Assembly: GCA_039803925.1 (NCBI GenBank)
Contig: JBDRZL010000001.1
Coordinates: 172,800 to 236,799, forward strand
Length of the DNA: 64,000 nt
Source of the DNA: a candidate division WOR-3 bacterium
GTDB lineage: Bacteria; Hydrothermota; Hydrothermia; Hydrothermales; JAJRUZ01
Direction of reading: 5' to 3'
The notes below the pieces were generated by a model that worked only from the letters and a program-made list of their open reading frames with translations, ran no database searches and was not told the DNA's origin. The position numbers and the translations under genes are program-made. Shown here one piece after another: positions 5,117-63,160 of this stretch. Position 1 is the stretch's first letter. Every line of letters begins with the position of its first letter.

Positions 5117-5145
5117 TTGAAAATTTTTAAAGGAAGTCTTATAAT
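5117..5145 (+). promoter_or_regulatory. consensus sigma70-type promoter (TTGAAA-N17-TATAAT) for the Lpp-like lipoprotein gene
   Basis: TTGAAA is at 5117-5122, the spacer 5123-5139 is exactly 17 nt, and TATAAT is at 5140-5145. Confidence 0.5.
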
Positions 5146-5171
5146 AAAAATATATAAATACAAATAATTGT

Positions 5172-5202
5172 GGGGTCCGAATCCCCTTTTAAAAATAAGG
5201 AG
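5172..5202 (+). promoter_or_regulatory. 5' leader mini-hairpin GGGGTCCGAATCCCC (T-loop-like) followed 10 nt later by SD AAGGAG
   Basis: A 4-bp GC stem with 7-nt loop TCCGAAT spans 5172-5186. The SD is at 5197-5202 and the ATG at 5210. The same arrangement recurs at 24728-24740 and 63148-63160. Confidence 0.45.
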
Positions 5203-5209
5203 TAATTTA

Positions 5210-5485
5210 ATGAAGAAGCTCTTATACATACTACCAATAGCAGGACTTTTATTTATATCCTGCCAGGTCCCTGAAAATATAAAGGCACTACCTGATAAGG
5301 TGAGTGCTCTGGAAACAAAAGTTCAGGAACTTGAGAGTAAAGTTTCTGATCTTGAATCAAGAGTTAATGAATTAAAGACAATGGTAGAAGAGTTAAAACA
5401 GGAAAAAGGGTCAAAAGAAACAAAACCTCAAACTGAGACAAAAGGTGAAGCTAAACCAAAGCTCCCACCAGTAAGGAAAAAATAA
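5210..5485 (+). CDS. Lpp-like coiled-coil lipoprotein (92 aa)
   Basis: It has a lipoprotein signal peptide MKKLLYILPIAGLLFISC. It then has heptad repeats (VSALETKVQELESKVSDLESRVNELKTMVEELK) reminiscent of Braun's lipoprotein. The ORF-track start at 5168 is an N-terminal over-extension, since the ATG at 5210 has a proper SD. Confidence 0.6.
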   Translation: MKKLLYILPIAGLLFISCQVPENIKALPDKVSALETKVQELESKVSDLESRVNELKTMVEELKQEKGSKETKPQTETKGEAKPKLPPVRKK

Positions 5486-23994: not shown

Positions 23995-24076
23995 AACACA
24001 TTAATTTCTATCTACCCTCCTTTAGGTGAAAAAACCTATTTAAAGCCTAAAAGTATAATCACACAAAAAAAATAAA

Positions 24077-24104
24077 GGGGGGATTGTTACCCCCCCCTTA
24101 TTTA
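24077..24104. terminator. bidirectional rho-independent terminator between convergent genes
   Basis: A GGGGGG-ATTGTTA-CCCCCCC(C) stem-loop is flanked by A-run AAAAAAAATAAA on one side and TTATTT on the other. It lies 20 nt downstream of the pilin stop on the minus strand. Confidence 0.75.
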
Positions 24105-24124: not shown

Positions 24125-24703
24125 TTATTGACCGGATGTAAGCACAAGACCTATATTTGCTTTGGAACCAAACCCACCAATAGCATAAGCCTGAGCTGCA
24201 TGGGTCGCAGTTGTTGGAGTCCATCCACCACCGGGAAGGAGATCATAAGAACCATACTGAATCATTCCTGCACTACTTATATCCCAGGTACCGTCAAAAA
24301 TACCGTCTCTACCATCATCAACACCACCAGGACCACTTTCAAATGCATTAGTCGCAGCCCTTACAGGGTTATGGAAGTCCACAGGTAATAAAATTGGACC
24401 CCCACTATTATCAGGTTTTGTAGCAGCGGCAATTCCAGCCACACTTGTATTATCGTTACCACGAGGTAAACCAACTTCTTGTCTTGCATTTGCCACAGTT
24501 GAGGAAAAATTTACCGGATAGTATCCTTCTGTATATGTAGAAAAAGCTTCAACAGCAGTCTGGGCTGTTTTCATATTACTTTGAACTGCTGCATCTTTTG
24601 CCTTTGACACCATCGCTATGAAGTTTGGTATGGCTATAGCAGCCAGTATACCTATGATCACCACCACGATGAGTAGCTCTATCAGGGTAAAACCTTTTTT
24701 CAT
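24125..24703 (-). CDS. type IV pilin / pseudopilin-like protein (major pilin candidate)
   Basis: The N-terminus MKKGFTLIELLIVVVIIGILAAIAIPNF is the prepilin cleavage/methylation motif. The protein is 192 aa, Gly/Ala/Thr-rich and has no Cys. The true start is at 24703 with SD AGGAGG; the ORF-track start at 24742 is an over-extension. GC content and third-position codon usage are much higher than in neighbouring genes. Confidence 0.8.
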   Translation of the reverse strand: MKKGFTLIELLIVVVIIGILAAIAIPNFIAMVSKAKDAAVQSNMKTAQTAVEAFSTYTEGYYPVNFSSTVANARQEVGLPRGNDNTSVAGIAAATKPDNSGGPILLPVDFHNPVRAATNAFESGPGGVDDGRDGIFDGTWDISSAGMIQYGSYDLLPGGGWTPTTATHAAQAYAIGGFGSKANIGLVLTSGQ

Positions 24704-24727
24704 TTTTTTACCTCCTTTTATTTCACA

Positions 24728-24740
24728 GGGATTCGAACCC
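24728..24740 (-). promoter_or_regulatory. 5' leader mini-hairpin (minus strand GGGTTCGAATCCC) 10 nt upstream of SD AAGGAGG of the pilin gene
   Basis: This is the same T-loop-like motif and the same spacing to the SD as at 5172-5186 and 63148-63160. Confidence 0.45.
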
Positions 24741-24770: not shown

Positions 24771-24786
24771 TGCAAAATTCATTCCA
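24771..24786 (-). promoter_or_regulatory. sigma54 (-24/-12) promoter candidate for the pilin gene
   Basis: The minus strand reads TGGAATGAATTTTGCA. GG and GC are spaced as in the consensus TGGCAC-N5-TTGCA, with the -12 element TTTGCA. It lies about 70 nt upstream of the pilin ATG. Confidence 0.5.
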
Positions 24787-24828: not shown

Positions 24829-24867
24829 TTTGCATTTTGCAAATGATTTTTGCAATTTGCAAATCAT
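24829..24867. promoter_or_regulatory. repeated or palindromic TTGCAA(A)T motifs, candidate enhancer (bEBP/PilR-like) binding region
   Basis: The minus strand reads ATGATTTGCAAATTGCAAAAATCATTTGCAAAATGCA. It is an imperfect 25-bp inverted repeat (ATGATTT...AAATCAT) containing three TTGCAA cores. It lies 45-95 bp upstream of the sigma54 candidate and overlaps the stop of the upstream gene. Confidence 0.4.
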
Positions 24868-25685
24868 CTTTTAGGAATAATGGACTCTACTGTATCCCCC
24901 CTTATTATGTAATAACCATCGTAAGGGTGTTTGGGTATTTCTTTTATATATCCCTTTTCTAAAAGTTCTCTAAGAGATAAGGGTGAGTATCCCTCTTTTT
25001 CTTTGAATTTTTTTATTAAAATATTTAAGTCTCTCATATGTATTTTCATTATTGTTCTTTTTATGTAATCCTTTGCAATTTCTTTTTCTACTTCACTTTT
25101 TACACTGTTATACATATACTCCCATAATTTAAGAGCTATTTCAAGATTTTTTAATTTTTTATAATAGGTAAAAGCATAAAATCTATAACAAACAGGTGGA
25201 GCATCTTTTTTAAATGTTGATAGTTTAAAAAATATTCCAGCAGTTTTATAATCCTTAAAAAAAACATAATTTAAAAAACCCATCCAGAAAGGGTATTCCC
25301 ACTTTTCAGGATTCTTATACATAGCTTTCATAAGCAGTTTTTTAACACTTAATTTATCTTTTAAATGATGAGCAATATTAACAGAACCAAATGTATAGGC
25401 ATGAAGAAATTTTTCATCAAGGTCTGTTATAATATCTGTAATAGGATATAAATAGGGGAATTGGAGGTCTGTTTGAAGATGATGTCCATAATATTGAATA
25501 AAAAGCAACCAGAAATAATCTGATAAAGTATTCCTGTGGTCAAGGGCTATATATTTTAAAATTTCACCCTTTGGAAGATAAAGAATTTCCTCTACTTTTT
25601 CTTTTACACCTCTTATTTCATCAAGTCTATAAGAAAGGTTTATAACAATTAAAAATAAAAGAAAAACATAAAAAAATTTTTTCAT
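24864..25685 (-). CDS. hypothetical secreted protein
   Basis: It has an N-terminal signal peptide MKKFFYVFLLFLIVINLS. I recognise no domain. It is the last gene of the pilin2-ABC cluster. Confidence 0.5.
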   Translation of the reverse strand: MKKFFYVFLLFLIVINLSYRLDEIRGVKEKVEEILYLPKGEILKYIALDHRNTLSDYFWLLFIQYYGHHLQTDLQFPYLYPITDIITDLDEKFLHAYTFGSVNIAHHLKDKLSVKKLLMKAMYKNPEKWEYPFWMGFLNYVFFKDYKTAGIFFKLSTFKKDAPPVCYRFYAFTYYKKLKNLEIALKLWEYMYNSVKSEVEKEIAKDYIKRTIMKIHMRDLNILIKKFKEKEGYSPLSLRELLEKGYIKEIPKHPYDGYYIIRGDTVESIIPKR

Positions 25686-26449
25686 TTAAACTCTTTTTTT
25701 TCAAAAATTAGAGATGAAATATAAAGTAAAAGAATTATATAAATAAGTCCATAGGAAGTGGAAAAAAGGAAATATTCTTTTTTAGGAATTTCACCATAAA
25801 CGATATTATTTTTTATATTAAAATGCTCAAGATTGGGTAAAAAGTAATATAGAAAATAACTTATAATTTTCAAAAAAAGCGATTTAGAAATCTCTGAAAA
25901 AAGCTTTAAGGACTCAATTAGGTGTCCTATAACATAAAAAATAAAACCCATAAAAGCAGAAAAAATAACCCCTGTAAAAGTTGAAAAGAAAATAAGTATT
26001 GAGATTATTATAGAAATTTCAAAAATAAAAGGATAAAGAGCTATAAAAATCTTTAAATCAAATTTCCCATCAGTTAAAAATATTAATATTTGATGAAAAA
26101 TTGACATACCAATTATATTTATCAATATAAGAACTAAAAAACCAAAAAATTTTCCTATGATTATCTCCCTTCTTTCCACAGGTGTTGTAACAATAAGATA
26201 AATCGTTCTTTTATCAAATTCCTTATGTAATAGAGAACCACCTACAATTATAACAAGTATAGTATTAAAAAATGTGATTGCAGAAAGCCCAAAATCCCTT
26301 ATTATTTTTGATTGTTCACCAACAGATAAGGGATAAAGGAAAAAAGAAATAAAAAGCAATGAAAAACCAAAAATAACAATTATAAAAAATATTTTCTGCC
26401 TTACAAGCTCCTTAAAAGTATTTTTTGCAATTGCAATTATTCCCTTCAT
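25682..26449 (-). CDS. ABC-2 family transporter permease
   Basis: It is a 6-TM hydrophobic protein whose start overlaps the stop of the ABC ATPase. The topology is ABC-2 type. Confidence 0.6.
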   Translation of the reverse strand: MKGIIAIAKNTFKELVRQKIFFIIVIFGFSLLFISFFLYPLSVGEQSKIIRDFGLSAITFFNTILVIIVGGSLLHKEFDKRTIYLIVTTPVERREIIIGKFFGFLVLILINIIGMSIFHQILIFLTDGKFDLKIFIALYPFIFEISIIISILIFFSTFTGVIFSAFMGFIFYVIGHLIESLKLFSEISKSLFLKIISYFLYYFLPNLEHFNIKNNIVYGEIPKKEYFLFSTSYGLIYIILLLYISSLIFEKKEFK

Positions 26450-27351
26450 TTCCCTTTCACCATTTCAACAAACCACTCTTCAAGGGTATATAGTTCAGGA
26501 GTAATTCTTATAATTTTTAAATTTTTTTCCTTTTCAAAAAGTTCTCTTAAAACTTTCTCTATATTCTCATCCAGAAGTTTCAAAACAATTTCATCACCCT
26601 TTTTTTCAAAATTTTTGCCCTTTAAATTTTCTTCATTAACATTTTTCAAAACTATCTCATAACTTTTAACTCTCTCCCTTAATATTTCACTTAAAGGACC
26701 CTCTTTTATTATTTCACCACTGAAAATTAAAATTACCCTGTCACATATTTCCTCAGCATCTGAAAGAATATGGGAGGAAAAAAATATAGTTTTACCTTTT
26801 GTTTTTTGCTCATAAATAAGCTCTTTTATTTCTTTTCTACCAATTGGATCAAGCCCTGTTAAAGGCTCATCAAGAATTAAAAATTCAGGGTCTCTTATGA
26901 GACTGCTTGCTATTCCTACTCTCTGAAGCATTCCCCTTGAATAAGTCCTTATCCTTTTATGTCCATCTCCTTTTAAACCAACTATTTCAAGGAGTTCATT
27001 TATTTTTTCTTTTAATACTTTCTTATTAATTCCGTAAAGCTCACCAATTAATTCAAGAAATTCATAACCTGAAAGATGGTCATAAAAATAAGGCTGTTCT
27101 GGCAAAAAACCTATTTTCTTCCTTACATTTTTGTCCCCTGGTTTTAAATCAAAAATTTTTACTTCCCCTTCATCATATTTCAAAAGTCCTGTTAAAATTT
27201 TTATTGTAGTTGTTTTTCCAGCACCATTTGGTCCCAAAAAACCAACAATTTCCCCTTTTTCTATATTAAAGGATATAGAATTCAAAACTTTTCTTTTTTT
27301 AAACCCGATAAGGAAATGTTTTGTTAAATTTTTTACCTCAACAATATTCAT
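26446..27351 (-). CDS. ABC transporter ATP-binding protein (ABC-2 exporter type)
   Basis: Walker A is GPNGAGKTT and the signature is YSRGMLQRVGIA. Walker B is ILDEP and an H-loop is present. Confidence 0.8.
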   Translation of the reverse strand: MNIVEVKNLTKHFLIGFKKRKVLNSISFNIEKGEIVGFLGPNGAGKTTTIKILTGLLKYDEGEVKIFDLKPGDKNVRKKIGFLPEQPYFYDHLSGYEFLELIGELYGINKKVLKEKINELLEIVGLKGDGHKRIRTYSRGMLQRVGIASSLIRDPEFLILDEPLTGLDPIGRKEIKELIYEQKTKGKTIFFSSHILSDAEEICDRVILIFSGEIIKEGPLSEILRERVKSYEIVLKNVNEENLKGKNFEKKGDEIVLKLLDENIEKVLRELFEKEKNLKIIRITPELYTLEEWFVEMVKGK

Positions 27352-27367
27352 TTTAAATTATTATATT

Positions 27368-27886
27368 TTAAGGAAGAATTAAATCAAGGGGACCTTTTAA
27401 TCCATAGGCAGTTATCACATATTTAGAAGCAACTTCTCCTTCAGTTGCAATATTTCCATCTTCCTTAAATCCTGTATAATAAACACACCCTATTGGCGGA
27501 ACAGGAGGTGGACCTGAAAAAAGATTGTCTAAAGCATTTTCATCGGGAAAAAAAGGATTTTTAAAACTCTCATGGGGGAGAAGAAGAGCATTCTGAGAAA
27601 AAGGCGGCTTTCTTCTTCCATCAGCAATGGATTTTTCTCCATCTGGATGACTTACTAAAGAAGGATTAACATCCTTAACCTTTGTATCAATACCACCTGG
27701 ATATTGACCAAGCGATGTAACAGAAAAAATTTCAACAACAGTATGAAGTATATGCATATTATTTTTTAAAGAGGCTTCCCTTGCGTTATTAACAAGTCTT
27801 ATATAATTTACTATTCCTATACTTGAAAGTATTCCAATTATAACAACCACAATCAAAAGTTCAACAAGGGTAAATCCCTTTTTCAT
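27368..27886 (-). CDS. type IV pilin / pseudopilin-like protein, paralog of 24125-24703
   Basis: The N-terminus is MKKGFTLVELLIVVVIIGILSSIG. Its C-terminal region resembles pilin 1 (SGPPPV..VYYTGF..ITAYGLKG versus ESGPGGV..YAIGGFGSK). Unlike pilin 1 it uses the AT-rich codon set. Confidence 0.75.
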   Translation of the reverse strand: MKKGFTLVELLIVVVIIGILSSIGIVNYIRLVNNAREASLKNNMHILHTVVEIFSVTSLGQYPGGIDTKVKDVNPSLVSHPDGEKSIADGRRKPPFSQNALLLPHESFKNPFFPDENALDNLFSGPPPVPPIGCVYYTGFKEDGNIATEGEVASKYVITAYGLKGPLDLILP

Positions 27887-36629: not shown

Positions 36630-37626
36630 ACATTTCCTCCAAAGTTTTTAAAAGAAGCTTTTTTGTATTGATTAAATCCTCTTCATATAAAAGTGAGGCT
36701 TTTGAATGAATATATCTGCATGGAACAGCTATTACACAAGATTTTACTCCTTTATTTGTCAAAGAAATAACTCCTGCATCCGTTGCTCCAGTTAAAGGTA
36801 TTTTCCACTGAAATTTAATATTATTTTTAAAAGCTGCCTTTTCTATATATTTAATTAAAACTTCATCAACTATAAGAGATCTATCCATTTTTGTTATAAC
36901 AGGTCCCCCTCCCATCTTCGGGTAATACTCCTCCTCTGGGTGATATGGTTCAAAAGCAAAAGTTCCTTCAAGAATAAAGGCAAGATCAATATTTTTTCTT
37001 TTTGAAGCAATCCTTGCACCCATAAGACCTGTTTCCTCCTGAGTTGTAAATATTAAAACAGAATCACAGGGTAAAGTATCATCAAGGATTAAAGAAAGAA
37101 GAATAGAACTACCTGCTCTATCATCAAAAGCTTTTCCCTTATAAACTCCTTTTCCAATTTCTTCAAATTTAGTCAAAAAAACACCTTCTTCACCTATATC
37201 TACTTTTCCTTTTGCTTCCTCTTTTGAGTAAACACCTATATCTATTACAAGTTTTTCATAGGTATATTCTATGCTGTTTTTTTTGTGTGGTGGAAGGCTC
37301 GAAATCACACCTTTAACACCATTTAAAAGTTCAACCTCAGTTCCTGGTAATATTTCAGCTTCAAGTCCTCCAAGAGGTTTAAATTTTAAAAAACCATCCT
37401 GGGTATAACCTGTAATTATAAAACCAACCTCATCAATATGAGCCAGAATCGCAATGTTTAAATCTGTTTTATTTTCTCCCTTTTTGTATACATAAATATT
37501 ACCAAAAAAATCCTCTTCATAATTAATCCCTTTTTCCTCCAGTCTTTTTTTAATAAAATTTCTAACTTCTTCCTCTCTTCCAGGAGGCCCTTTTAATTCT
37601 GATAATTCTTTTAAATACTCAATCAT
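36601..37626 (-). CDS. M42 family aminopeptidase (second, tandem paralog)
   Basis: Motifs HIDEVGF and DDRAGS are present. It is 341 aa. It overlaps the downstream M42 paralog by 29 nt. Confidence 0.75.
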   Translation of the reverse strand: MIEYLKELSELKGPPGREEEVRNFIKKRLEEKGINYEEDFFGNIYVYKKGENKTDLNIAILAHIDEVGFIITGYTQDGFLKFKPLGGLEAEILPGTEVELLNGVKGVISSLPPHKKNSIEYTYEKLVIDIGVYSKEEAKGKVDIGEEGVFLTKFEEIGKGVYKGKAFDDRAGSSILLSLILDDTLPCDSVLIFTTQEETGLMGARIASKRKNIDLAFILEGTFAFEPYHPEEEYYPKMGGGPVITKMDRSLIVDEVLIKYIEKAAFKNNIKFQWKIPLTGATDAGVISLTNKGVKSCVIAVPCRYIHSKASLLYEEDLINTKKLLLKTLEEMYGENFKGIV

Positions 37627-40505
37627 CTATTTTTTAAAGTTTTTTTTAAAGAATCTATCTTATTTTTAAAGGGCTCAGGTAGATTACGCATCCTCTCGGT
37701 AAGTTTTATAATCTCTCTCAATTTTTGTGTATCACCTTTCAGATTATATAGGGTCAAAAAGTCCATTATTAAGAAGGGATCAGCAAATCTAAAACTCAAA
37801 GCTTTATTAAAATTCTCCTCTGCTTTATTTAAATCTTTAAGTCCCAAATAACTTTCACCAATCACCCTATAAATCTCAGGAGCCTGAGCTTCTTTTAAAA
37901 TATCCTGAGCCTTCAATAAACCTTTTTCATATTCACCTTTCCTATTATAAAGATCAGCAAGAGTGAGTTTCACTGCAATCCAAGCTCTTTCCTCCTCAGG
38001 TTCACCTGATTTAACATCACCCTGGAAAAGTTCAGAAAATTCAAACTCTTTAATAGCCTTTTCAATTTCTCCAATACTCTGATAATAAAGACCAAGAACT
38101 ATTGCAAGAGAACGATACTGACCAAGTAATCTATCATGAGTTAAATCCTTAAAAACACTTTCATCTTTTTTACCATCTTTCAATATCCCTCTGTATCTAA
38201 ACCTATTATGTAAAAAGTCCTCTGTTTTACTAACATCCATACCTGTTCCAAATGGTGATGTAATTTCCTGTTTGAAAGGTGTAACTCTATAAACCATACC
38301 TTCAAGTAAAAGATAATCTTGAAAATCCCTGTAAGATTTTCTTTCACAGGTCATAGAAAAAAATAAAGGTGGTTTAGGCAATTTGTTTTTACCTTTTTCA
38401 ATTACTTCCTTCATAAATTCTCTTCCATCCCATAAGAAAATTTCAGGTATTGAAACCCCTGTGGGTAATGTTCTTGTTTTCGTATTTTCATTAAATTCAT
38501 AGCCAAATACACCAGCAATAATATCCCTTATCATTATATCTCTCACAAGAACAATATCTTTTTCTGTTCTGAAAGGAATAAGTTTTTTTATTTCATCCTC
38601 TGTAAAATGAATAGGAACTCCCCATCTCTTGAGCTGAATGTTATACCAGTCAGTATTTAAAAGAGAAAGGTTAGCAACAATAACACTCTTCTTATAACCA
38701 AATAAAATCTGTAAAGCCCATAGGGGAAATGTATCATTATCACCGTTTGTAAATACTATTCCACCATCATCAACACAGGAAAGTAAATTATAAGAGTAAT
38801 CTTCAGCAATATAATTTTTACTTCTATCAACTTTATGATAGAAAGCACTTATCTGCCAGATTGGAATAAAAATTGAAAAGATAATAAAGATATATTTTAA
38901 ATAAACACTGAATTTTTCTTTTAAATTTTCAAAAGAAAGTCTTATTATTTCAAAAAGTCCAAATCCAGCATAGAGACCAAAGAAAAAGTATCCAGGAATA
39001 AAAAAGTAATCCCTATCTCTAACCTCTGTAGGAATTGAGTTTAAAAGTTGTAAGAAACTTGGGTTATTTAAATCAAATATTGATAAAACTTCTCTTATTC
39101 TTTGAGAATATAAAAATTTGGGAAACTGCTTTATGAAATTTAGAAAATCTATTAGAGTTGAAGGGTAATTTAAATTTAATTGAACTATTAAACCAAGAGT
39201 TCCTATTATAAAAGCTCCACCAAAAAGAACAAAACTTTTCCAGTCAGAATATATATGCGAAATTATACCTATTATTCCAAGTATTACAATTAAGGGGATA
39301 AACTGCCAGGAAAAATAATAAAAAAATCCCCATATTTGATCTATAAAAGACCAGAATTGATTATAAACAGGAGTTGAAAAAAACTCACCTTGTCTTACAT
39401 TACTTGTCCTTCTTGGATAAATATTCATAGGTTCGTATTGTTTCCTTGATAAAACATCCCAGAAAGATTGCCATGTTTTTGGTTCAACCTGATTTATTGG
39501 AGTATCAAATCTTGACCTTATCAAAAGATAAAATTCAGGTGTAACTCCAATAATTATAAAAATTAAAGCAAAACCCCTTGCATCAAGAAAGAGTTTTGTA
39601 TATATGAAAGTTATAAGTAATAAAAAGATTGTGGAAACAAAAATTAAAATTTTCCACTGCTGAAATATTGAAACCAAGGACAAAATAAATAGAATAAAAT
39701 AAATTATTTCAAAAGAATTAAAAAGAAATTTTTTATTATGCTTTTTCCATATGGAAGTATAAGAAAATAAAGAACCTGTAATTATAAAAAGAAGAAGAGC
39801 CTTCAAACTGAAAGGCTCATATGTTGCCCTTAAAGCTCCTGCAAGAAGCAAAAAAATCCCTATACTGGATAAAAATTCTATATTAAAAATTTCTTCTTTT
39901 TTGATAACTGCAATGAAAATAAGCAAAACAGGAATTATAATAAGAGAAAGTAAATGAATTCCAGAACTTAAAGATAATAAGTAAAAAGCTGTTATAATAT
40001 ACCTAAGGGAATCATTTTTATCTTTTTTCTCCCACCAGAGAAAAAGTAAATACACTGAAAGAGTAATAAATAAGGTTGAAGGAACATAAGTCTCAGCTTC
40101 TATTCCACTCCACCAGGTTGTAAAGGTAAAGGGTGCACATAAAGAACCCATAAAAGCTGAGAAATGCTTTAAAATATCAGGTAGCTTTTTAGAAACCCTG
40201 TTAAAGATTTTATATAAAAGTAAATAGCCAATTCCTGCTGAAAATGCTCCTGAAAGAATAGCAGCAAGAGTAATTTTCTGGACTACATTTAAAAAGGGTA
40301 TAGGGAGCAGAGAAAAGAATCTCCCTACAATAACATAAAAAGGTGTTCCTGGAGGATGAGGTATTCCAAGAATCCAGGAAGTTGCCAAAAATTCACCCAC
40401 ATCCCAGAAAACAATTGTTGGAGCCGTTGTTTTAAGATAAATAACAAAAGTTATTATAAAAGATAAAGAGAAAAAAATTTTTTTTGTTAAATTTTTATTT
40501 TCCAT
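37623..40505 (-). CDS. large polytopic membrane protein with C-terminal TPR repeats (GT-C / DUF2723-like glycosyltransferase candidate)
   Basis: At 960 aa it has more than 12 predicted TM helices. The N-terminal loop reads WDVGEF...GIPHPPGTPFY. The C-terminal ~150 aa are TPR-like. Confidence 0.45.
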   Translation of the reverse strand: MENKNLTKKIFFSLSFIITFVIYLKTTAPTIVFWDVGEFLATSWILGIPHPPGTPFYVIVGRFFSLLPIPFLNVVQKITLAAILSGAFSAGIGYLLLYKIFNRVSKKLPDILKHFSAFMGSLCAPFTFTTWWSGIEAETYVPSTLFITLSVYLLFLWWEKKDKNDSLRYIITAFYLLSLSSGIHLLSLIIIPVLLIFIAVIKKEEIFNIEFLSSIGIFLLLAGALRATYEPFSLKALLLFIITGSLFSYTSIWKKHNKKFLFNSFEIIYFILFILSLVSIFQQWKILIFVSTIFLLLITFIYTKLFLDARGFALIFIIIGVTPEFYLLIRSRFDTPINQVEPKTWQSFWDVLSRKQYEPMNIYPRRTSNVRQGEFFSTPVYNQFWSFIDQIWGFFYYFSWQFIPLIVILGIIGIISHIYSDWKSFVLFGGAFIIGTLGLIVQLNLNYPSTLIDFLNFIKQFPKFLYSQRIREVLSIFDLNNPSFLQLLNSIPTEVRDRDYFFIPGYFFFGLYAGFGLFEIIRLSFENLKEKFSVYLKYIFIIFSIFIPIWQISAFYHKVDRSKNYIAEDYSYNLLSCVDDGGIVFTNGDNDTFPLWALQILFGYKKSVIVANLSLLNTDWYNIQLKRWGVPIHFTEDEIKKLIPFRTEKDIVLVRDIMIRDIIAGVFGYEFNENTKTRTLPTGVSIPEIFLWDGREFMKEVIEKGKNKLPKPPLFFSMTCERKSYRDFQDYLLLEGMVYRVTPFKQEITSPFGTGMDVSKTEDFLHNRFRYRGILKDGKKDESVFKDLTHDRLLGQYRSLAIVLGLYYQSIGEIEKAIKEFEFSELFQGDVKSGEPEEERAWIAVKLTLADLYNRKGEYEKGLLKAQDILKEAQAPEIYRVIGESYLGLKDLNKAEENFNKALSFRFADPFLIMDFLTLYNLKGDTQKLREIIKLTERMRNLPEPFKNKIDSLKKTLKNR

Positions 40506-43174: not shown

Positions 43175-43191
43175 TTCGGAGTTGAACCGAA
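43175..43191 (-). promoter_or_regulatory. leader hairpin variant (minus strand TTCGG-TTCAACT-CCGAA) abutting SD AAGGA of ppdK
   Basis: It is a 5-bp stem with a 7-nt T-loop-like loop. It lies 20 nt upstream of the ppdK ATG and is related to the GGTTCGAATCC motif. Confidence 0.3.
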
Positions 43192-47847: not shown

Positions 47848-47874
47848 GGGATTTGAACCCTTTGATAAATCAAA
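47848..47874 (-). promoter_or_regulatory. leader motif variant GGGTTCAAATCCC (minus strand) adjacent to the perfect palindrome TTTGATAAATCAAA
   Basis: GGGATTTGAACCC occupies 47848-47860 on the plus strand, 36 nt upstream of the isochorismatase-family gene ATG. The palindrome at 47861-47874 overlaps the stop of the upstream small ORF. Confidence 0.3.
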
Positions 47875-54661: not shown

Positions 54662-54751
54662 TTTATCACCTCCCAAATAATTAAATAGCAAATATTATTC
54701 CATTTTAATTTTAAAAAAATTGCACAATTTTAATTCAAATAGTTATAAAAA

Positions 54752-57380: not shown

Positions 57381-57631
57381 TGGAAATTTTTGAATGTAAA
57401 AGTTGTGGTTCTTTAATTGGTATTCAGGGAGAAAAAGAGCCTTTATTCTGTCCCTTATGTAGGGGTAAAATGATAAAAATTGAACTTGATGTTGACTTGA
57501 AAGTAAAAATCAAATGTCCTGAATGCGAAAATATATTCTTTGTAAAGGAAAACTTTTCTCCCTATAAATGTGCTTTTTGCAATTTCACCTTCATTTCTTC
57601 CCCTTTCCGTAAATTTGAAGAAAGACTCTAA
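57377..57631 (+). CDS. small zinc-ribbon protein
   Basis: Its 84 aa carry four CxxC pairs (CKSCG, CPLCRG, CPECEN, CAFCN). Its start overlaps the upstream stop. Confidence 0.45.
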   Translation: MMEIFECKSCGSLIGIQGEKEPLFCPLCRGKMIKIELDVDLKVKIKCPECENIFFVKENFSPYKCAFCNFTFISSPFRKFEERL

Positions 57632-58599
57632 TAAAGAATACTAAATATCTGTATTCTTGAATTCATCTGTTCTACCACATAAACTTTTTTATTTCTTATA
57701 AAAATTCCCGCTGGTAACCTGAATTCACCTGGATTCCACCCTATTCCCTCTATACCAAGATATACGTTTCCGTACTTATCAAAAATTTGAATTCTGTGTA
57801 AGAAGGAATCTGTTACATAAATATACCCTTTTTCATCTACTGCTATACCTTTTGGCCTTACAAAAAAACCTGGTGCATTACCAGATTTACCGAAAACATT
57901 AATAACCTCTCCTTTTGGGTTTAAAATCTGAACTCTAAAATTCCCCCATTCACATACATAAATATTTCCTTCTGAATCAAGATTTATTCCAGTTGGATAA
58001 AGAAATTCTCCTGGTTTATTTCCTTTTCTTCCGATTGTATAAAGAAATTGACCCTCAAAGCTAAAAACCTGAATTGCCATGAGACTGTCATCAAGCACAT
58101 ATATCTTTTTTCTGTAATCGTCGACAGTAAGATTAACCGGTTTATAAAGCCCCTTTTTAATAACTAAATTTCCCTCAAATTCAGGTATTTTTATTCCATA
58201 AACTGCTTTTGCACCTGGATCAGCAACAAAAAGCATATTAAGTGCCTCGGAAAAGGCAACTCCTGTGGGTCTTGTGAATCTAAAACTTCTTGTTCCCTGA
58301 TACCATTTAACTATTTTGTTTTTTTGATCTATAAAAACTATAGCAGCAAAACCAGGGTCAGCCACATAAATTCTTTCTTTACTATCAACAAAAATTCCGA
58401 AAGGATATTTTAAAAGTCTTGTTTTTTTTATTCCGAGAATTTTATCTACTGTTCTTTTTATTATATTTCCCTCTCCTACAATATCCTCTTTAGTAAATAA
58501 GATTCCCTCATATTTTATTTTTGCTTCTTCAGGAGGGGGTGGCCATACAAACTCTTTTTTTTCCTGAGAAATTAAAATTAAAAATACTAAAAAATTCAT
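57628..58599 (-). CDS. NHL-repeat beta-propeller protein, secreted
   Basis: It has a signal peptide. About six NHL-like repeats are present (YVADPG, LFVADPG, IYVLDD, IYVCEWGNFRVQIL, IYVTDSFLHRIQIF, VYVVEQMNSRIQIF). It is the last gene of the multiheme cytochrome cluster. Confidence 0.75.
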   Translation of the reverse strand: MNFLVFLILISQEKKEFVWPPPPEEAKIKYEGILFTKEDIVGEGNIIKRTVDKILGIKKTRLLKYPFGIFVDSKERIYVADPGFAAIVFIDQKNKIVKWYQGTRSFRFTRPTGVAFSEALNMLFVADPGAKAVYGIKIPEFEGNLVIKKGLYKPVNLTVDDYRKKIYVLDDSLMAIQVFSFEGQFLYTIGRKGNKPGEFLYPTGINLDSEGNIYVCEWGNFRVQILNPKGEVINVFGKSGNAPGFFVRPKGIAVDEKGYIYVTDSFLHRIQIFDKYGNVYLGIEGIGWNPGEFRLPAGIFIRNKKVYVVEQMNSRIQIFSILY

Positions 58600-59222
58600 C
58601 TTTTAACCTCCGGTTTATGGGGATTATGGCATTTAATACAATCATCACCTTCAAAATGAAAATCAATTTTATGACAGTTATTACATAAATCCAAATTTTT
58701 TAAAAGCTTAGATTTACCTCTATGAAGTTTATGACAATCTATACAGGCTAAACTCAAATGTTTCCCTGAAAAAAGTTCAATCTCTAAATGACATTTTTCA
58801 CAAAAAATAGGATCAATACTTCTTAAAAGGTATTTATAATTCCTTTCATGAGGATCATGGCAGGTTGTGCACTTAATTTCTCTCTCTTTTTCATCAATAG
58901 CATATTTTCTAATGGGGTGATTGTCTTCTTTATAGTTAATTCCTAAAAAAATAGAAGAAGTATCAGGAATTTCATAAAATTTTGCTATATTGCTATATAA
59001 AGTTATAAGATAATTTTTATCAGTATGACAGTTCATACAGGTAAGGGAAACATAGTCAAAATCTTTAAAGTTTTCTTTTAATTCATCATCTGGTATTATT
59101 TTAATAAGAAAAGGACCTTTTGAGTTATGGGATGAATGACAAAATTTACATATCCTCTCTCCTTCTCTATTTCTAAAATCATGAGGAAAATTGACTAAAA
59201 TTAAAAAGAAAAAGAGTTTCAT
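58596..59222 (-). CDS. multiheme c-type cytochrome (7 CxxCH)
   Basis: The heme motifs are CKFCH, CMNCH, CTTCH, CEKCH, CIDCH, CNNCH and CIKCH. It has an N-terminal signal peptide. Confidence 0.85.
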   Translation of the reverse strand: MKLFFFLILVNFPHDFRNREGERICKFCHSSHNSKGPFLIKIIPDDELKENFKDFDYVSLTCMNCHTDKNYLITLYSNIAKFYEIPDTSSIFLGINYKEDNHPIRKYAIDEKEREIKCTTCHDPHERNYKYLLRSIDPIFCEKCHLEIELFSGKHLSLACIDCHKLHRGKSKLLKNLDLCNNCHKIDFHFEGDDCIKCHNPHKPEVKR

Positions 59223-60049
59223 TTCTTATGGCATACAGAACATACAGGTTTATTTGGCCATTTTAAATGAAATCCAAATTTTGTGCCATGAGAGTTGTGA
59301 CAGCTATTACAAAAGATACCTTTTTTATCACCAGGGTGATTTGCAACAGGATGATGGATACCGTATAGTTCCTTTTCATGACAAATTATGCAGAGAGAAT
59401 TGATTTTAGTTTTTAAAAATTTATCCTCCATAGAAGAATGCGGATCATGACATATAACACAATCACCTCTTGCATAGGGACTGTGAAGATAAAAACCTTC
59501 TTCAATTTCATGGCATTCTTTACAAACTTTTTCTGAATTTGGTCTATCAAAAATACTTTTATGACAGTTATCGCAAGCTAATTCCTCAAAGGGTGGATGA
59601 AATCTTAGACCTTTATCAAATTTTTCCTTATGACAGGTAAAACAGTCAAGTTCTTCACTTTTTGAAACTTTTTTATATGTTATTGAATGGCAATTTTTAC
59701 AAAATTTTTCCACTTCTGATTTATGAAAATTATATAATTTTGCATCAACTTTGAAGTTTTCAGAAGGAAGTGAATAAATAATAAGAGTCTGTGATTCAGT
59801 TTTATTATTTTTTTCATAATAAAGAGTTATTTCATTTTTACCATTTTTAAGTTCTACTATAAAATGTTTTATATTTTCAGCTCTAAAAGTATCGTAAATA
59901 ATTTCTGGTTTTAAAAGCCATGCTTTATCAGCTTCAAGGATTATTCTTATAAATCTATCCTTAACAAAGATAGCTGATGGGGGTGTTAAAACTGCAAAAA
60001 AAAGTAAATAAATCAATATTCCGCCTTTCCGTGACATGCAGGTCCGCAT
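59219..60049 (-). CDS. multiheme c-type cytochrome (8 CxxCH) with an N-terminal heme-free domain
   Basis: The heme motifs are CKNCH, CFTCH, CDNCH, CKECH, CVICH, CIICH, CNSCH and CSVCH. The start is probably M5 (MSRKGG, at 60037) rather than 60049. Confidence 0.85.
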   Translation of the reverse strand: MRTCMSRKGGILIYLLFFAVLTPPSAIFVKDRFIRIILEADKAWLLKPEIIYDTFRAENIKHFIVELKNGKNEITLYYEKNNKTESQTLIIYSLPSENFKVDAKLYNFHKSEVEKFCKNCHSITYKKVSKSEELDCFTCHKEKFDKGLRFHPPFEELACDNCHKSIFDRPNSEKVCKECHEIEEGFYLHSPYARGDCVICHDPHSSMEDKFLKTKINSLCIICHEKELYGIHHPVANHPGDKKGIFCNSCHNSHGTKFGFHLKWPNKPVCSVCHKK

Positions 60050-60897
60050 ATTCCTCCTTTTTTATTTTTTTCAAATTTAAAAGTCAATATATAATCATTG
60101 GGACCAAACTTTTTTCCACCTTCAACAAAAAATGGATTATCCGAATAATGGGGATTATGACACAAAGAACAGGTTATTCCCTTATCCTTTTTGACGTGAA
60201 ATTCATGTAAATTTAATCCATTTTTTTTAAAATTAGTTTTTTCTGAAAAAATAGATTCTGGATCATGACAGTTAAAACAGAGTTCATATTGAAGGTATGT
60301 AAAGGTAGTGTAAAGTTTATTTGGATACATTGAATTAAGAAGAAGAGGAAATTGAGAAGAGTGGGGATTATGACAGTTTATACAATTTTCTAAAGGAGGA
60401 TGTTTATATTTTTTTATCTTATAAAAATTTTCCATTTCTGTATGGCATTTAAAACAGAGAGTATTTACCTGATTTAATAAATAAGATTTAGAATTATTAC
60501 CGTGAACATCATGACAATCCTTACAATTACCCTCAATAAAGGGATTATGGATACTTATCAAATTTTTTAAAATTTCTTTATGACAGTTTGAGCAAAGATA
60601 AGGAAGTTTTTCCTTAAGAAGATGATTGATAGGGGAAGAGTGAGGATTATGGCAGATAGAACAGTCCTCATTCACAGGTGGATGTTTCGATGAAGATTTA
60701 TCAGAATGGCAGGATAAACATAGTTCAGTAACATTTTCAATCTTTTTAAATGGGTGTTTTCCGACAAGTTCATGACACGAAGAACAATCTTCTTTTGCAG
60801 GTGGATGGAGAACTTTTTCCTCAATTAATAAATCATGACAACCCTTTTTAATACAATTTTCCTGCTGAAAAATTAAAAATAATAAAATAATTTTCAT
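60013..60897 (-). CDS. multiheme c-type cytochrome (9 CxxCH plus CX3CH and CX4CH candidates)
   Basis: The canonical motifs are CSSCH, CLSCH, CSICH, CSNCH, CKDCH, CFKCH, CINCH, CFNCH and CSLCH. There is also an N-terminal CIKKGCH (CX4CH) and a C-terminal CGPACH (CX3CH). Confidence 0.85.
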   Translation of the reverse strand: MKIILLFLIFQQENCIKKGCHDLLIEEKVLHPPAKEDCSSCHELVGKHPFKKIENVTELCLSCHSDKSSSKHPPVNEDCSICHNPHSSPINHLLKEKLPYLCSNCHKEILKNLISIHNPFIEGNCKDCHDVHGNNSKSYLLNQVNTLCFKCHTEMENFYKIKKYKHPPLENCINCHNPHSSQFPLLLNSMYPNKLYTTFTYLQYELCFNCHDPESIFSEKTNFKKNGLNLHEFHVKKDKGITCSLCHNPHYSDNPFFVEGGKKFGPNDYILTFKFEKNKKGGICGPACHGKAEY

Positions 60898-62471
60898 TTT
60901 AATTTTATATTTCTTTTAACTAAAAAGTGGAAAATTATATTACTTTCACTTTCAGGATATATTAAATAAATATAAGTAAAACCTAAACTTAAAATCAAAT
61001 CCCCATAATTTCTTTCAAAAGCTATTTTTAAATCATTTTCAAATTTCTCACTGAAATAAAATTTTTCCTCCAGAGTGAACATATTGAATAATCTTAAAGG
61101 AGCACTGAAAGAAATTCTTATAAATTCCTTTCTTGTTAAGGAATACTCTGTTTTAATGTATTCATTTACATAACTGAAATTAAAGGGAATTTCTTTTGTG
61201 TTAAATTCTACTCTTGTATGATACTTTATCCAAGTGTTTATATTATTATTTATTCTGGTGATATCTCTGAAATAATAAAAATTTAAGGATAAAAGGTATC
61301 TTTTTGAATTATAACTTAAATTGATTCCTGAATAATAACCGTATTTTTTTTCATTTTTTAAAATCCATGTGTCATTAAAGGTTTTATAATATAAATCAAC
61401 AAAAAATCTCAAATTTTCAAAAATTAAAAAATTTTTTTGTTCATATAAATTACCTTCTTTTAATAGATAGCCCCATCCATTTCCTTCAGGGTTCTGTGAA
61501 AAAAATACTGAAAATCCTGGTGAAATTGTAAGTGTTCTTGGTAAATTTAAAAATTTTAAATAGAAAGTCTGAGAAAAATCCTCATAAAAATTTTTTCCTT
61601 CTTTCAGGGAATTTGTTTGAAAACCTAATGTGGTATTAGAAATAAATCTTTCTGAAAAGAATTTTTTAAATGAGGTATTTAAAAAGTTAGTGGTTGTAAA
61701 TTTTGATCTATTGAAAGAATAGTACATATCAAAAAAGTAATTTCTATTTTTAAAAATATGATATACAAAACTTGAGTTTATGTATGTAAATGAGTTCCTG
61801 AAAAAGTATTTCGTATCCCACTTAAAATTAATATCACCTTTTTTATAGTTATAATTAAAATTAAAATTTTCTATATTCTGGTATAGGCTTTTAAATTCTC
61901 TATTGTAATATAAAGAAAAAGTATTTTCTTTAAAGGAATAATTTGAGGTGAATGCTAAACTTTTTTTATTAAAACTATTTTCTTTTCCCCAGGAATATGA
62001 GAAATTTAAATTAGGAAAATTTCTAATTAATAGTCCCTGCGAGATTATATAAGTTAAAGTTTTTCTTTCAAAAATTATTTTGTCCTCTTTTTTAAAATCT
62101 TCTTTTTTTACAGTAAATTTAAAAGGAAACTTAGATTTTTCTAATAAATTAAGATTAAATAAAAAAGGAGCTTTTAAAAAATTTTTTTCTTCTATACCAT
62201 AAAGATTTTTATTCCAGCTCTGCCATAAAAGGTATGTTTTAAGATTGTAATTTAATAATTCTCTCTTATAAATAAAACCATTAATAAATAAATTTATTGA
62301 ATTTTCATAATCTTTATAAAATGGTTTTGTAAGAGTGTTTTTAAAATTCCCATTTACATAATACCTTTCTGAAAGAAAATATAGATTAAATTTTGTAATT
62401 CCTGCATTCAAAAATGATATTAAAAATAAAGAGGGGAGGATTTTTATCCCCCCCTCTTTAAAGACTATCAC
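60894..62471 (-). CDS. porin-like outer-membrane beta-barrel candidate of a porin-cytochrome complex
   Basis: It is 525 aa with a signal-peptide-like N-terminus (KILPSLFLISFLNAG). It is extremely N/Y/F/K/S-rich with an alternating beta-strand pattern. It sits between the tetraheme and deca-heme cytochrome genes. Its 5' coding end overlaps the terminator hairpin at 62428-62460. Confidence 0.5.
   Translation of the reverse strand: MIVFKEGGIKILPSLFLISFLNAGITKFNLYFLSERYYVNGNFKNTLTKPFYKDYENSINLFINGFIYKRELLNYNLKTYLLWQSWNKNLYGIEEKNFLKAPFLFNLNLLEKSKFPFKFTVKKEDFKKEDKIIFERKTLTYIISQGLLIRNFPNLNFSYSWGKENSFNKKSLAFTSNYSFKENTFSLYYNREFKSLYQNIENFNFNYNYKKGDINFKWDTKYFFRNSFTYINSSFVYHIFKNRNYFFDMYYSFNRSKFTTTNFLNTSFKKFFSERFISNTTLGFQTNSLKEGKNFYEDFSQTFYLKFLNLPRTLTISPGFSVFFSQNPEGNGWGYLLKEGNLYEQKNFLIFENLRFFVDLYYKTFNDTWILKNEKKYGYYSGINLSYNSKRYLLSLNFYYFRDITRINNNINTWIKYHTRVEFNTKEIPFNFSYVNEYIKTEYSLTRKEFIRISFSAPLRLFNMFTLEEKFYFSEKFENDLKIAFERNYGDLILSLGFTYIYLIYPESESNIIFHFLVKRNIKLK
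62428..62460 (-). terminator. intrinsic terminator/attenuator downstream of the tetraheme cytochrome gene
   Basis: The minus strand reads AAGAGGGGGGGGAT-AAAAA-TCCTCCCCTCTTTATTTTTAAT. It is a 9 to 10-bp GC stem followed by a T-rich tract. It lies 34 nt after the cytochrome stop, inside codons 4-15 of the annotated porin-like ORF. Confidence 0.6.
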
Positions 62472-62493
62472 TTTATTCTATTAAACTATATTA

Positions 62494-63126
62494 TTACTTT
62501 CTGTGACAATCAAGACAAATCTGGCTATTGGTTGTATCACCTCTCAGGAATCTATATGCAGGTAAGAAAACATTTGTATTGTGTGGGTCATGACATGTGG
62601 CACAGGTCATAACTGAATCAGCACCTGCCTGCTGGGCTGAAAAATTATAAAGAGGATAAGGCCAACCACTTGGAGGGTTAAACTCTGTACTCGGAAGAAT
62701 TCCTGGTGCAACATCCATATCTACGGGGTGAGAGTAAATAAGAGAATCATTAGTTCCGCTTGTTACATCAGGTGGATTCTGAACAGCAGTTCCCACAGGT
62801 CTGGGACCATATGAATAGAGTGTTCCCATATCAGCTGCAGTCTGAGTTCCATCATGACAGGATAAACAGGCGTAGGTTATCCAGGATGCTCTTGTCATGG
62901 GGTCAGTATATGTTCCGTTATAAAGGGCAGTTATTGTTGGAACATATGCTCTGTTCCAGAGATAATAAAAGTTCTGATTGGGATTAGCATTGTGAGGGGT
63001 ATGACAGTAAATGCATACCTGTCCTACATTGGGTCTATTGAAGTCATGTCTACTTCCCACTACTGTTGCATGGAGCCAAATAAAAAAGGCTCCAAGACTT
63101 ATTATTGCTATTATATATTTTTGCAT
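62494..63126 (-). CDS. tetraheme c-type cytochrome, secreted (210 aa)
   Basis: It has a signal peptide. The heme motifs are CIYCH, CLSCH, CATCH and CLDCH. AAGGAGGG sits 2 nt from the ATG. GC and C-ending codon usage are markedly higher than in flanking genes. Confidence 0.85.
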   Translation of the reverse strand: MQKYIIAIISLGAFFIWLHATVVGSRHDFNRPNVGQVCIYCHTPHNANPNQNFYYLWNRAYVPTITALYNGTYTDPMTRASWITYACLSCHDGTQTAADMGTLYSYGPRPVGTAVQNPPDVTSGTNDSLIYSHPVDMDVAPGILPSTEFNPPSGWPYPLYNFSAQQAGADSVMTCATCHDPHNTNVFLPAYRFLRGDTTNSQICLDCHRK

Positions 63127-63147
63127 ATGTCCCTCCTTTTTTATTAA

Positions 63148-63160
63148 GGATTCGAACCTA
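63148..63160 (-). promoter_or_regulatory. 5' leader mini-hairpin (minus strand AGGTTCGAATCCT) 8 nt upstream of SD AAGGAGGG of the tetraheme cytochrome gene
   Basis: This is the same motif and spacing as at 5172-5186 and 24728-24740. Confidence 0.45.

Follow-up and report, generated by a model that had tools for sequence, protein, structure and literature searches.

What does the open reading frame (ORF) at 24125..24703 encode, how is it expressed, and is its unusual composition a sign of foreign origin? These questions are raised by a window of 64,000 nucleotides (the whole stretch of DNA that was analyzed, from contig JBDRZL010000001.1 of assembly GCA_039803925.1, a bacterium of candidate division WOR-3, Hydrothermales). 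The ORF lies on the minus strand, contains 192 codons and is called here pilin1. It is probably the principal type IV (T4a-like) pilin of this WOR-3/Hydrothermales bacterium, expressed from a putative sigma-54 promoter of its own. An earlier note on the same DNA had described two pilin ORFs with a shared prepilin N-terminus, a hairpin and a -24/-12 promoter, and this description of the sequence was essentially right.

The pilin1 coding sequence starts at an ATG located 7 nt after the end of the motif AAGGAGG, and its translation begins MKKGFTLIELLIVVVIIGIL / MKKGFTLIELLIVVVIIGILAAIAIPNF. The product has the layout of a prepilin: a four-residue leader, MKKG, is followed by a mature protein with Phe at position 1 and Glu at position 5, a long alpha-1 helix and a small beta-sheet head. 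All the elements of a class III signal are found around the junction of MKKG with FTLIELLIVVVIIGILAAIAIP, i.e., a basic leader, Gly(-1), Phe(+1), Glu(+5) and a hydrophobic stretch of about 20 residues. Accordingly, pilin1 scores above the cut-offs of the prepilin motif models PF07963 (33.6 bits, cut-off 21.2) and TIGR02532 (36.8 bits, cut-off 16.3). Beyond this motif, no full-length family match was obtained in Pfam or NCBIfam, either for pilin1 or for its paralog in the window, pilin2. An AlphaFold2 model of pilin1, built with 54 homologs, reached a predicted local distance difference test score (pLDDT) of 91 and a predicted template modeling score (pTM) of 0.82. In it, residues 7-57 form a helix, which is accompanied by a sheet of four strands; the lollipop fold of type IV pilins, in which a helix of some 50 N-terminal residues packs against an antiparallel beta-sheet, is thus reproduced. 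With this model as the query, Foldseek gave zero PDB matches. When PDB sequences were searched with a profile, the alignments covered only the first 50-60 residues of pilin1, with Myxococcus xanthus PilA (2.8e-19) and Geobacter PilA-N (1e-18) at the top. The head domain is lineage-specific. Considered together, these data support that pilin1 is a type IV pilin-like gene.

The NCBI name of the pilin1 orthologs is "type II secretion system protein", and this brings in the alternative that pilin1 could form a short periplasmic pseudopilus, working as a secretion piston together with an ABC (ATP-binding cassette) transporter, rather than a long surface pilus. In agreement with this, GspG appears among the N-terminal matches of pilin1, with which it has the prepilin N-terminus in common, and a module formed by a pilin, an ABC ATPase, an ABC-2 permease and a protein of 273 residues is conserved. 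Geobacter PilA-N/C has also been proposed as a secretion pseudopilus. However, the GspG model TIGR01710 gives pilin1 only 45.7 bits, where the cut-off is 88.85, and the match is confined to the N-terminal 60 residues or so (residues 3-64). Because this score is far under the cut-off, the NCBI label is a generic prepilin-motif name. Besides, no gsp genes occur in the window, and relatives of pilin1 are found in pilus clusters that bear PilT, such as that of locus L009, a T4a pilus cluster with the retraction ATPase PilT and with PilS/PilR. Moreover, pili were observed on the first and only cultured WOR-3 isolate (PMC12285271). A pseudopilus role for pilin1 seems therefore unlikely, and a surface pilus is the preferred interpretation.

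Concerning the expression of pilin1, the minus-strand gap that separates it from the upstream gene, which encodes the 273-residue protein, measures about 160 bp and contains, in this order, a distal dyad, a proximal dyad, a spacer rich in A-tracts, a -24/-12 element, a leader element, the AAGGAGG motif and the ATG. The distal dyad, TTTGCAAATTGCAAA (24849..24863, minus strand, centered at about -96), begins directly after the stop codon of the 273-residue protein gene. The proximal dyad, TTTGCAAAATGCAAA (24829..24843, minus strand, centered at about -76), is a putative site for an enhancer-binding protein. Both follow the pattern TTTGCA-N3-TGCAAA, with the two copies 20 bp apart, and lie within the interval of about 70-150 bp upstream where activator sites of sigma-54 promoters are located. 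The promoter-like sequence TGGAATGAATTTTGCA (24771..24786, minus strand) reads TGGAAT-GAATT-TTGCA, and conforms to the sigma-54 pattern TGGCAC-N5-TTGCW in having GG at -24 and GC at -12 with the exact spacing of 10 nt; it predicts a transcription start at about 24760. Downstream of it, the Shine-Dalgarno sequence AAGGAGG occupies 24711..24717 (minus strand), and its GGAGG core is invariant in the ortholog alignments. At the other end of the gene, an intrinsic terminator (24070..24103, minus strand), made of a G-run/C-run stem followed by a T-run, is located 22 nt past the stop codon. Terminator-like predictions in the region numbered 9, against 1.2 expected, and all but two of them fell on that stem. 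With a promoter at one end and a terminator at the other, pilin1 is predicted to be a monocistronic unit.

The pattern TGG-N8-TTGCW occurs 8 times in the window, against 3.3 expected, so that a single match is not significant alone. The match upstream of pilin1 is credible because it is conserved in orthologs. Seven orthologous loci were compared, together with a more distant lineage, L096. When aligned, seven orthologous intergenic regions diverge except in the dyads, the -24/-12 element, the leader motif and the ribosome-binding site, which do not vary, and the promoter segments TGGAA and TTTGC are unchanged across eight lineages. L096, whose pilin is only 50% identical to pilin1, retains the dyads, the promoter, the leader motif and the ribosome-binding site. 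Its distal dyad, TCGCAAATTGCGA, carries a symmetric pair of changes, T to C and A to G, that preserves the dyad (TCGCAA-A-TTGCGA), and its proximal dyad, TTGCATAATGCAA, is changed in both halves to give a perfect 6-1-6 dyad (TTGCAT-A-ATGCAA). Such paired changes are the behavior that would be expected for a site bound by a dimer. These observations, to which equivalents in two other WOR-3 loci can be added (L009 and L010), support the earlier note in its prediction of a sigma-54-type promoter, in the style of those of Geobacter and Myxococcus pilins.

A contig scan with pilin1, a query affected by the common N-terminal pattern of pilins, gave no Hydrothermales ortholog among the matches listed, and recovered L009 and L010. 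L009, from another WOR-3 metagenome-assembled genome (MAG), contains a cluster with two pilB genes, pilT, pilC, pilS (6TM_PilS) and pilR (Sigma54_activat); one glycosyltransferase gene on the opposite strand separates pilR from the box upstream of the pilin. This box is TTTGCAAAATGCAAA, the same as the proximal dyad of the window, and is followed by the promoter TGGAATATTTTTTGC, after which two pilin genes are followed by those of an ABC ATPase, of an ABC-2 permease and of a homolog of the 273-residue protein. In L010 (WOR-3 UBA2202), the pilin is preceded by the box TTTGCAAATTGCGAA and the promoter TGGCATATAAATTGCA. By tblastn, the genes of the module in the window are 33-42% identical to the genes that follow the pilins of L009 and L010. 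Box, promoter and pilin-ABC module thus constitute a predicted WOR-3-wide unit. In L009:9900-10003 and L010:50-170, the -12 element stands about 12-15 nt from the pilin start codon and there is no Shine-Dalgarno sequence, which suggests that these two pilin mRNAs may be nearly leaderless.

A second sigma-54-type promoter, TGGAATAATATTTGCT, was observed in the window at 54687-54702 (minus strand), 15 nt upstream of the ribosome-binding site of a small lipoprotein gene with its ATG at 54661. This promoter and an upstream box, TGTGCAATTTTT, are conserved in the related loci L100 and L101, and are absent in L099. A second conserved -24/-12 promoter suggests that sigma-54 may be in use in this lineage.

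On these grounds, a model of pilin1 expression can be proposed. An enhancer-binding protein of the PilR type would bind as dimers at the two dyads, at -96 and -76, which by their 20-bp separation would lie on the same face of the DNA helix. The spacer rich in A-tracts would let the activator reach the RNA polymerase-sigma-54 complex at TGGAAT-N5-TTGCA. The transcript would be a monocistronic RNA of about 700 nt, provided with a leader of 57 nt that contains an element resembling a tRNA T-arm, with AAGGAGG as the ribosome-binding site, and with a hairpin plus T-run as its end. Its product, the prepilin MKKG-FTLIELL, would enter the membrane, lose its leader to a prepilin peptidase that cleaves after Gly4, and be polymerized by machinery of the PilB/PilC type, as can be presumed from the family. 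Pilin1 is probably the main pilus subunit, given that it has a promoter of its own and that both its ribosome-binding site and its terminator are strong.

Several observations weigh against this interpretation. A weak sigma-70-like match (9/12) overlaps the promoter at 24793-24764. Within the 64-kb window there is no pilB, pilC, pilD, pilM-pilQ, pilS, pilR or rpoN gene, nor any protein with a Sigma54_activat or RpoN domain. A search for PilB seeded from L009 gave no Hydrothermales-named protein among the best 120 matches, and a filter on amino-acid composition, meant for matches from AT-rich genomes, provided no discrimination. Mature pilin1 is free of cysteine and so does not contain the disulfide-bonded C-terminal D-region, a feature that is common in T4a pilins of Gram-negative bacteria and not universal. 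Finally, the status of major subunit would be deduced solely from expression signals and composition.

With respect to composition, the earlier note had remarked that the GC content of pilin1 is well above that of its neighbors, and this was borne out: at 0.434, it is the highest of the 53 window ORFs of at least 100 residues (mean 0.303, standard deviation (sd) 0.043; whole window, 29.9%). Most of the excess is carried by the first and second codon positions (GC1 0.549 and GC2 0.487, 2-3 sd over the mean), while the third position (GC3) reaches 0.264 for the whole gene, against a mean of 0.189 (about 2.5 sd above). Since the excess lies at codon positions 1 and 2, it is mostly a matter of amino-acid composition: pilin1 is rich in Ala (13.6%), Gly (12.6%) and Thr (7.9%), compared to backgrounds of 4.3, 6.4 and 4.1%, and poor in Lys (3.7%) and Glu (2.6%), compared to 10.0 and 8.3%.

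The same GC excess had led to the suggestion that pilin1 could be a second, GC-richer pilin allele acquired recently by horizontal transfer. Apart from its top GC content in the window, the location of the gene at the end of an operon and beside a convergent gene could be in favor of this, as could the L096 allele, which at 50% identity and with inserted accessory genes indicates that pilin loci in the group are swappable. Nevertheless, the context of pilin1 is that of a resident gene. All seven loci display the order binding protein, ribD, aspS, pyrR, a 430-residue protein gene, pilin2, ABC ATPase, ABC-2 permease, the 273-residue protein gene and pilin1, followed by the convergent gyrB-dciA-recF. 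The pilin1 site, between the 273-residue protein gene and gyrB, is thus occupied in seven genomes with pilins 73-98% identical, and also in L096, i.e., with the same position and flanks in eight lineages. The closest relatives, those with 73-98% identity, are all from MAGs of candidate division WOR-3 or Candidatus Hydrothermales, and the next ones, with 40-50% identity, are from WOR-3, TA06 and Cloacimonadota. A pilin phylogeny had been recommended in the earlier note as a check for transfer; in a neighbor-joining tree, a deep split separates the pilin1 clade from the pilin2 clade, and both contain orthologs of their own. Distant WOR-3 have the same promoter and upstream box, and past codon 35 the codon usage is native. 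Given the conserved synteny, the same-lineage origin of the closest relatives and the antiquity of the paralogs, recent horizontal transfer is refuted, and we give it very little credence indeed; pilin1 is an old gene, vertically inherited. Amino-acid content plus a bias that affects 34 codons can account for the apparent GC island of this AT-rich genome, and no horizontal transfer is needed.

That bias is located in the codons 2-35 (24602..24700, minus strand), which encode the invariant signal-anchor, or N-terminal alpha-1, helix. Of 33 codons in this segment, 16 have G or C as their last letter, where the window usage for these amino acids would predict 4.3 (P=6e-7), and only 5 end in T, compared to 14.7 expected. 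Among 18,336 windows of 34 codons in other ORFs, none reached a fraction of 0.5 of G/C-ending codons. Codons 36-192 do not depart from background, either in the number of G/C-ending codons (29, with 25.8 expected; P=0.27) or in the ratio C/(C+T) at third positions (0.163 against 0.153). Pilin2 is at background throughout, notwithstanding that it encodes the same helix. The codon contrast drawn in the earlier note between the two paralogs is right as to CTG/CTC/ATC/GTG in pilin1 and CTT/ATT/GTT in pilin2 (more fully, CTG/CTA/CTC/ATC/GTG/GCC/GCG and CTT/TTG/ATT/GTT, respectively), but not as to Thr, which is encoded by ACC in both, with ACA unused. The GC3 check that it recommended gave a similarly mixed outcome, i.e., a raised value for pilin1, yet by a shift local to codons 2-35, and a background value for pilin2.

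The bias is a lasting character of the gene. In all the pilin1 orthologs, the N-terminal GC3 is 0.34-0.50 against 0.16-0.22, and in every lineage the fraction of C-ending codons (C3) is 0.15-0.27 against 0.07-0.12, with T-ending codons (T3) at 0.15-0.30 against about 0.5. It occurs also in pilin1-like genes of other WOR-3, not in pilin2-like genes, and its stable component across lineages is an increase of C-ending codons and a decrease of T-ending ones. At the same time, synonymous divergence in the N-terminus equals that of the rest of the gene, e.g., 14/32 and 47/105 (0.44 and 0.45). Equal synonymous turnover with persistent bias means that the constraint is on composition and not on particular nucleotides.

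Other accounts of codons 2-35 were discarded. Equal synonymous divergence excludes an excess conservation of synonymous sites, a conserved nucleic-acid element or the simple retention of ancestral codons. It is also contrary to gene conversion between the paralogs, for which no long identical run between the two N-termini was found either. A role of the G/C-ending codons in building RNA structure was rejected as the fold of the leader plus early coding sequence has z = -0.29 versus shuffled sequences, and the alignment fold showed almost zero covariation.

As to the nature of the constraint, the earlier note had invoked strong translational selection. A gene-wide version of it could account for the whole-gene GC3 of pilin1, and would be in line with the raised GC3 or C3 of other genes for envelope proteins that are likely abundant: the top values of third-position C/(C+T) in the window are those of a 4-haem cytochrome (0.30) and of a lipoprotein resembling Braun's lipoprotein, or Lpp (0.22), both likely to be abundant envelope proteins. 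However, codons 36-192 are at background and the entire codon excess comes from 34 codons, so that gene-wide selection is improbable, and the idea holds for the N-terminal helix only. A different possibility is that the N-terminal G/C-ending codons are rare, slow codons, or serve to avoid U-rich RNA, in either case aiding co-translational membrane targeting or mRNA survival. Such codons are indeed scarce in this genome of 30% GC (background C3 0.08, G3 0.09), the bias spans exactly the signal-anchor helix, G-ending codons are enriched too, and the top four z-scores of N-terminal GC3 all belong to exported proteins (pilin1, 6.1; an OmpA-like protein, 3.9; the Lpp-like lipoprotein, 3.0; a lipoprotein-type binding protein, 2.05). 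Yet ORFs with a hydrophobic N-terminus do not differ from the others (P=0.29, or 0.41 without pilin1), pilin2 has the same helix and is unbiased, and no stable RNA structure is formed. All in all, the rare-codon explanation deserves consideration and is rather doubtful. Most likely, the N-terminal bias reflects selection to decode accurately, or efficiently, the error-intolerant residues of an abundant protein. In this form, as codon-level selection limited to the invariant N-terminal helix and favoring C-ending over T-ending codons, the translational hypothesis is partly supported. Two points count against it: in this lineage, the enrichment extends to G-ending codons (9, with 2.0 expected), which a preference of C over T leaves unexplained, and the preferred codons were judged from usage in the window. 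If true, a codon-composition constraint limited to the invariant helix of a major pilin across WOR-3 would be a novelty of lesser rank.

The possibility that pilin1 is a conductive pilin (e-pilin), engaged in extracellular electron transfer with multihaem cytochromes, had been raised in the earlier note on account of cytochrome machinery thought to be adjacent. The genes in question, rich in CXXCH motifs, are at 58596..63126, i.e., 34 kb and about 25 unrelated genes away from pilin1. In favor of such a role, the helix of pilin1 is like that of Geobacter PilA-N, its regulation is apparently of the sigma-54/PilR type, and the cytochrome cluster is in the same window. But the likeness to PilA-N is limited to the helix common to all T4a pilins. 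E-pilins are recognized as truncated pilins of about 60-90 residues with dense, evenly spaced aromatics, and pilin1 departs from them in both respects: its mature form has 188 residues with a full globular head, and contains 16 Phe, Tyr or Trp (8.5%, or 9.6% with His), with a longest aromatic-free gap of 43 residues. Pilin1 is, then, most improbable as an e-pilin, and the nanowire interpretation can be removed as unsupported. The cytochromes belong to a cluster at 57628-63126 (minus strand) that encodes an NHL beta-propeller protein, 7-, 8- and 9-haem cytochromes, a 525-residue protein and the 4-haem cytochrome. The 525-residue protein, without a Pfam match, is possibly an outer-membrane porin, and the gene of the 4-haem cytochrome has 41% GC and the strongest preference for C-ending codons in the window. 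The cluster looks like an electron conduit of the porin-cytochrome type, unconnected to the pilin locus.

Returning to pilin1 as a probable major pilin, it can be compared with known systems. In M. xanthus, pilA depends on sigma-54 and PilR and is part of the cluster pilS-pilR-pilA-pilG-pilH-pilI, where pilGHI are ABC-transporter-like. The best N-terminal matches of pilin1 are to M. xanthus (NF041775 and PDB 8tj2), and here too the pilin is linked to an ABC ATPase, an ABC-2 permease and a small protein. However, with 58.7 bits against a cut-off of 400 for NF041775, pilin1 is not an ortholog, and its globular domain is unrelated in sequence; in addition, in the window the sigma-54 pilin follows the ABC genes and it is the second pilin that precedes them. 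Pseudomonas aeruginosa pilA is likewise dependent on sigma-54 and PilR. Pilin1 resembles it by N-terminal matches (1oqw, 8tum) and by the existence of divergent pilin alleles at a fixed site, one of them, in L096, with accessory genes that include a glycosyltransferase. It differs in the sequence of the PilR site and in that there is no C-terminal disulfide loop and no flanking tRNA gene here. Thermus thermophilus PilA4 (PDB 6xxd), the major pilin of the wide type IV pilus, is also among the closest known systems. Geobacter sulfurreducens pilA (GSU1496) has an RpoN promoter, with pilR just upstream, and its activator is the enhancer-binding response regulator that this neighboring gene encodes (PMC2725144). 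The likeness to pilin1 comprises the -24/-12 pilin promoter, the helix (matches to PDB 9egp, 7tgg and 2m7g) and the order pilB-pilT-pilC-pilS-pilR-pilin, which is the same in L009. On the other hand, Geobacter PilA is split, with a truncated PilA-N of 61 residues compared to the single mature protein of 188 residues of pilin1, whose gene has no pilS/pilR beside it and is preceded by a box, TTTGCA-N3-TGCAAA, that is defined here. Pilin1 is thus a concrete candidate for the main pilus subunit of WOR-3, a phylum with a single cultured isolate, and the box plus the sigma-54 promoter constitute a testable model that would extend the PilR-RpoN scheme of Geobacter, Myxococcus and Pseudomonas to a distant lineage.

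The only part of this locus with potential for something new is the recurring T-arm-like element of the leader, GGGTTCGAATCCC (24728..24740, minus strand), a GGG-N7-CCC hairpin that in the predicted transcript would span approximately +20 to +32. Its core, GGGTTCRAATCCC, is invariant in all the pilin1 orthologs, with flanks that vary and add no pairs to the stem. It coincides with the consensus of the tRNA T-arm (G53-T-T-C-R-A-N-N-C61), with a T-loop of 7 nt and 3 stem pairs only. In the window there are 5 occurrences of the sequence GGTTCRANNCC, where 0.31 would be expected, and 4 of a strictly defined hairpin, where 0.21 would be expected (0 of 300 shuffles reached 4). All four strict matches are on the sense strand, 21-36 nt ahead of a start codon: besides that of pilin1, they precede the genes of the 4-haem cytochrome (63147-63159, minus strand), of pyruvate phosphate dikinase (PPDK; 43177-43189, minus strand) and of a hydrolase of the isochorismatase family (47848-47860, minus strand). 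With the variant GGGGTCCGAATCCCC in the leader of the Lpp-like lipoprotein (5172-5186, plus strand), a mini-hairpin with the loop TTCRANN and a stem of 3 bp is found in the leaders of five window genes including pilin1, in every case on the sense strand and within the same 21-36 nt interval. In relatives, the element occurs just upstream of position 10001 in L099, L100 and L101, and at L100:14685 and L101:2633. The leaders of the isochorismatase and dikinase orthologs keep the element in altered form, and all but the PPDK leader of L099, with T at the R position, fit the T-loop consensus. As a control, the strict pattern was applied to unrelated bacterial loci totaling 1.25 Mb, where it matched 26/26 tRNAs and about 5 other places, none of them a leader. 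The pilin leader of about 45 nt with T-arm motif and AAGGAGG is specific of Hydrothermales, the element being absent from the pilin leaders of L009 and L010.

A tRNA gene, a tRNA remnant or an integration site was rejected as the explanation of the leader element, as there is no cloverleaf and no 5-bp stem, and the flanks are unpaired. ARAGORN found no tRNA in the window or in the seven related loci checked, and Rfam gave at the leader only sub-threshold noise and no family. By eye, only partial matches to a promoter of the Bacteroidetes type (TAnnTTTG) were seen just before the hairpins. We put forward, tentatively and from sequence comparison, that the element could represent an undescribed class of Hydrothermales 5'-leaders, a minimal T-arm mimic placed before genes several of which are probably expressed abundantly, possibly with action at the RNA level. 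It could be a site for a T-arm-binding protein (an enzyme of the TruB, TrmA or TrmI type, in the role of modifier or chaperone), an mRNA stabilizer or a translation enhancer. A T-arm-binding protein is a candidate reader because enzymes of the TruB type recognize T-loops (PMC13492117).

The Lpp-like gene that carries the variant element (5210-5485, plus strand) encodes a coiled-coil lipoprotein of 91 residues; its real start is the ATG at 5210, while the TTG listed at 5168 is spurious. It is preceded at 5118-5146 (plus strand) by a perfect sigma-70-type promoter, TTGAAA and TATAAT separated by 17 nt, and a metagenome scan with this gene gave one distant match.

Upstream of pilin1, an operon at 24864..27886 (minus strand) consists of pilin2 (27368..27886), the ABC ATPase (26446..27351) and the ABC-2 permease (25682..26449), both assigned by Pfam and NCBIfam, and the 273-residue protein (24864..25685), directly upstream of the pilin1 gap; the module formed by pilin, ABC ATPase, permease and 273-residue protein is the one conserved in WOR-3. 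The translation of pilin2, MKKGFTLVELLIVVVIIGIL, passes the cut-offs of PF07963 and TIGR02532. Pro22 does not occur in pilin2, and in L003:6830-7348 and L004:6822-7340 an Ala replaces the Gly at the -1 cleavage position. Pilin2 has been lost in L005, and L006 conserves a remnant of 95 residues (L006:5526-5813). Pilin2 behaves as an ancient, dispensable accessory pilin of the adjacent ABC-transporter operon.

Other observations concern the orthologous loci and their accessory genes. In L007:9911-10489 (GCA_039804065.1), the deposited annotation of the pilin begins at an internal Met and yields 162 residues, with loss of the prepilin motif; the ORF is in fact intact, with 192 residues including the leader peptide, and differs from the pilin1 of the window in 4 residues. 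In L096:10554-14251 and L097:2764-6461, a protein of 666/696 residues and a glycosyltransferase of the PMT_2 type are encoded between the pilin and gyrB; these extra genes are accessory genes linked to the allele, possibly involved in the glycosylation of the pilin. In the window, positions 37623-40505 (minus strand) encode a TMEM260-like protein O-mannosyltransferase of 960 residues with TPR repeats, conserved in L099 and L100, which is a possible enzyme of envelope-protein glycosylation.

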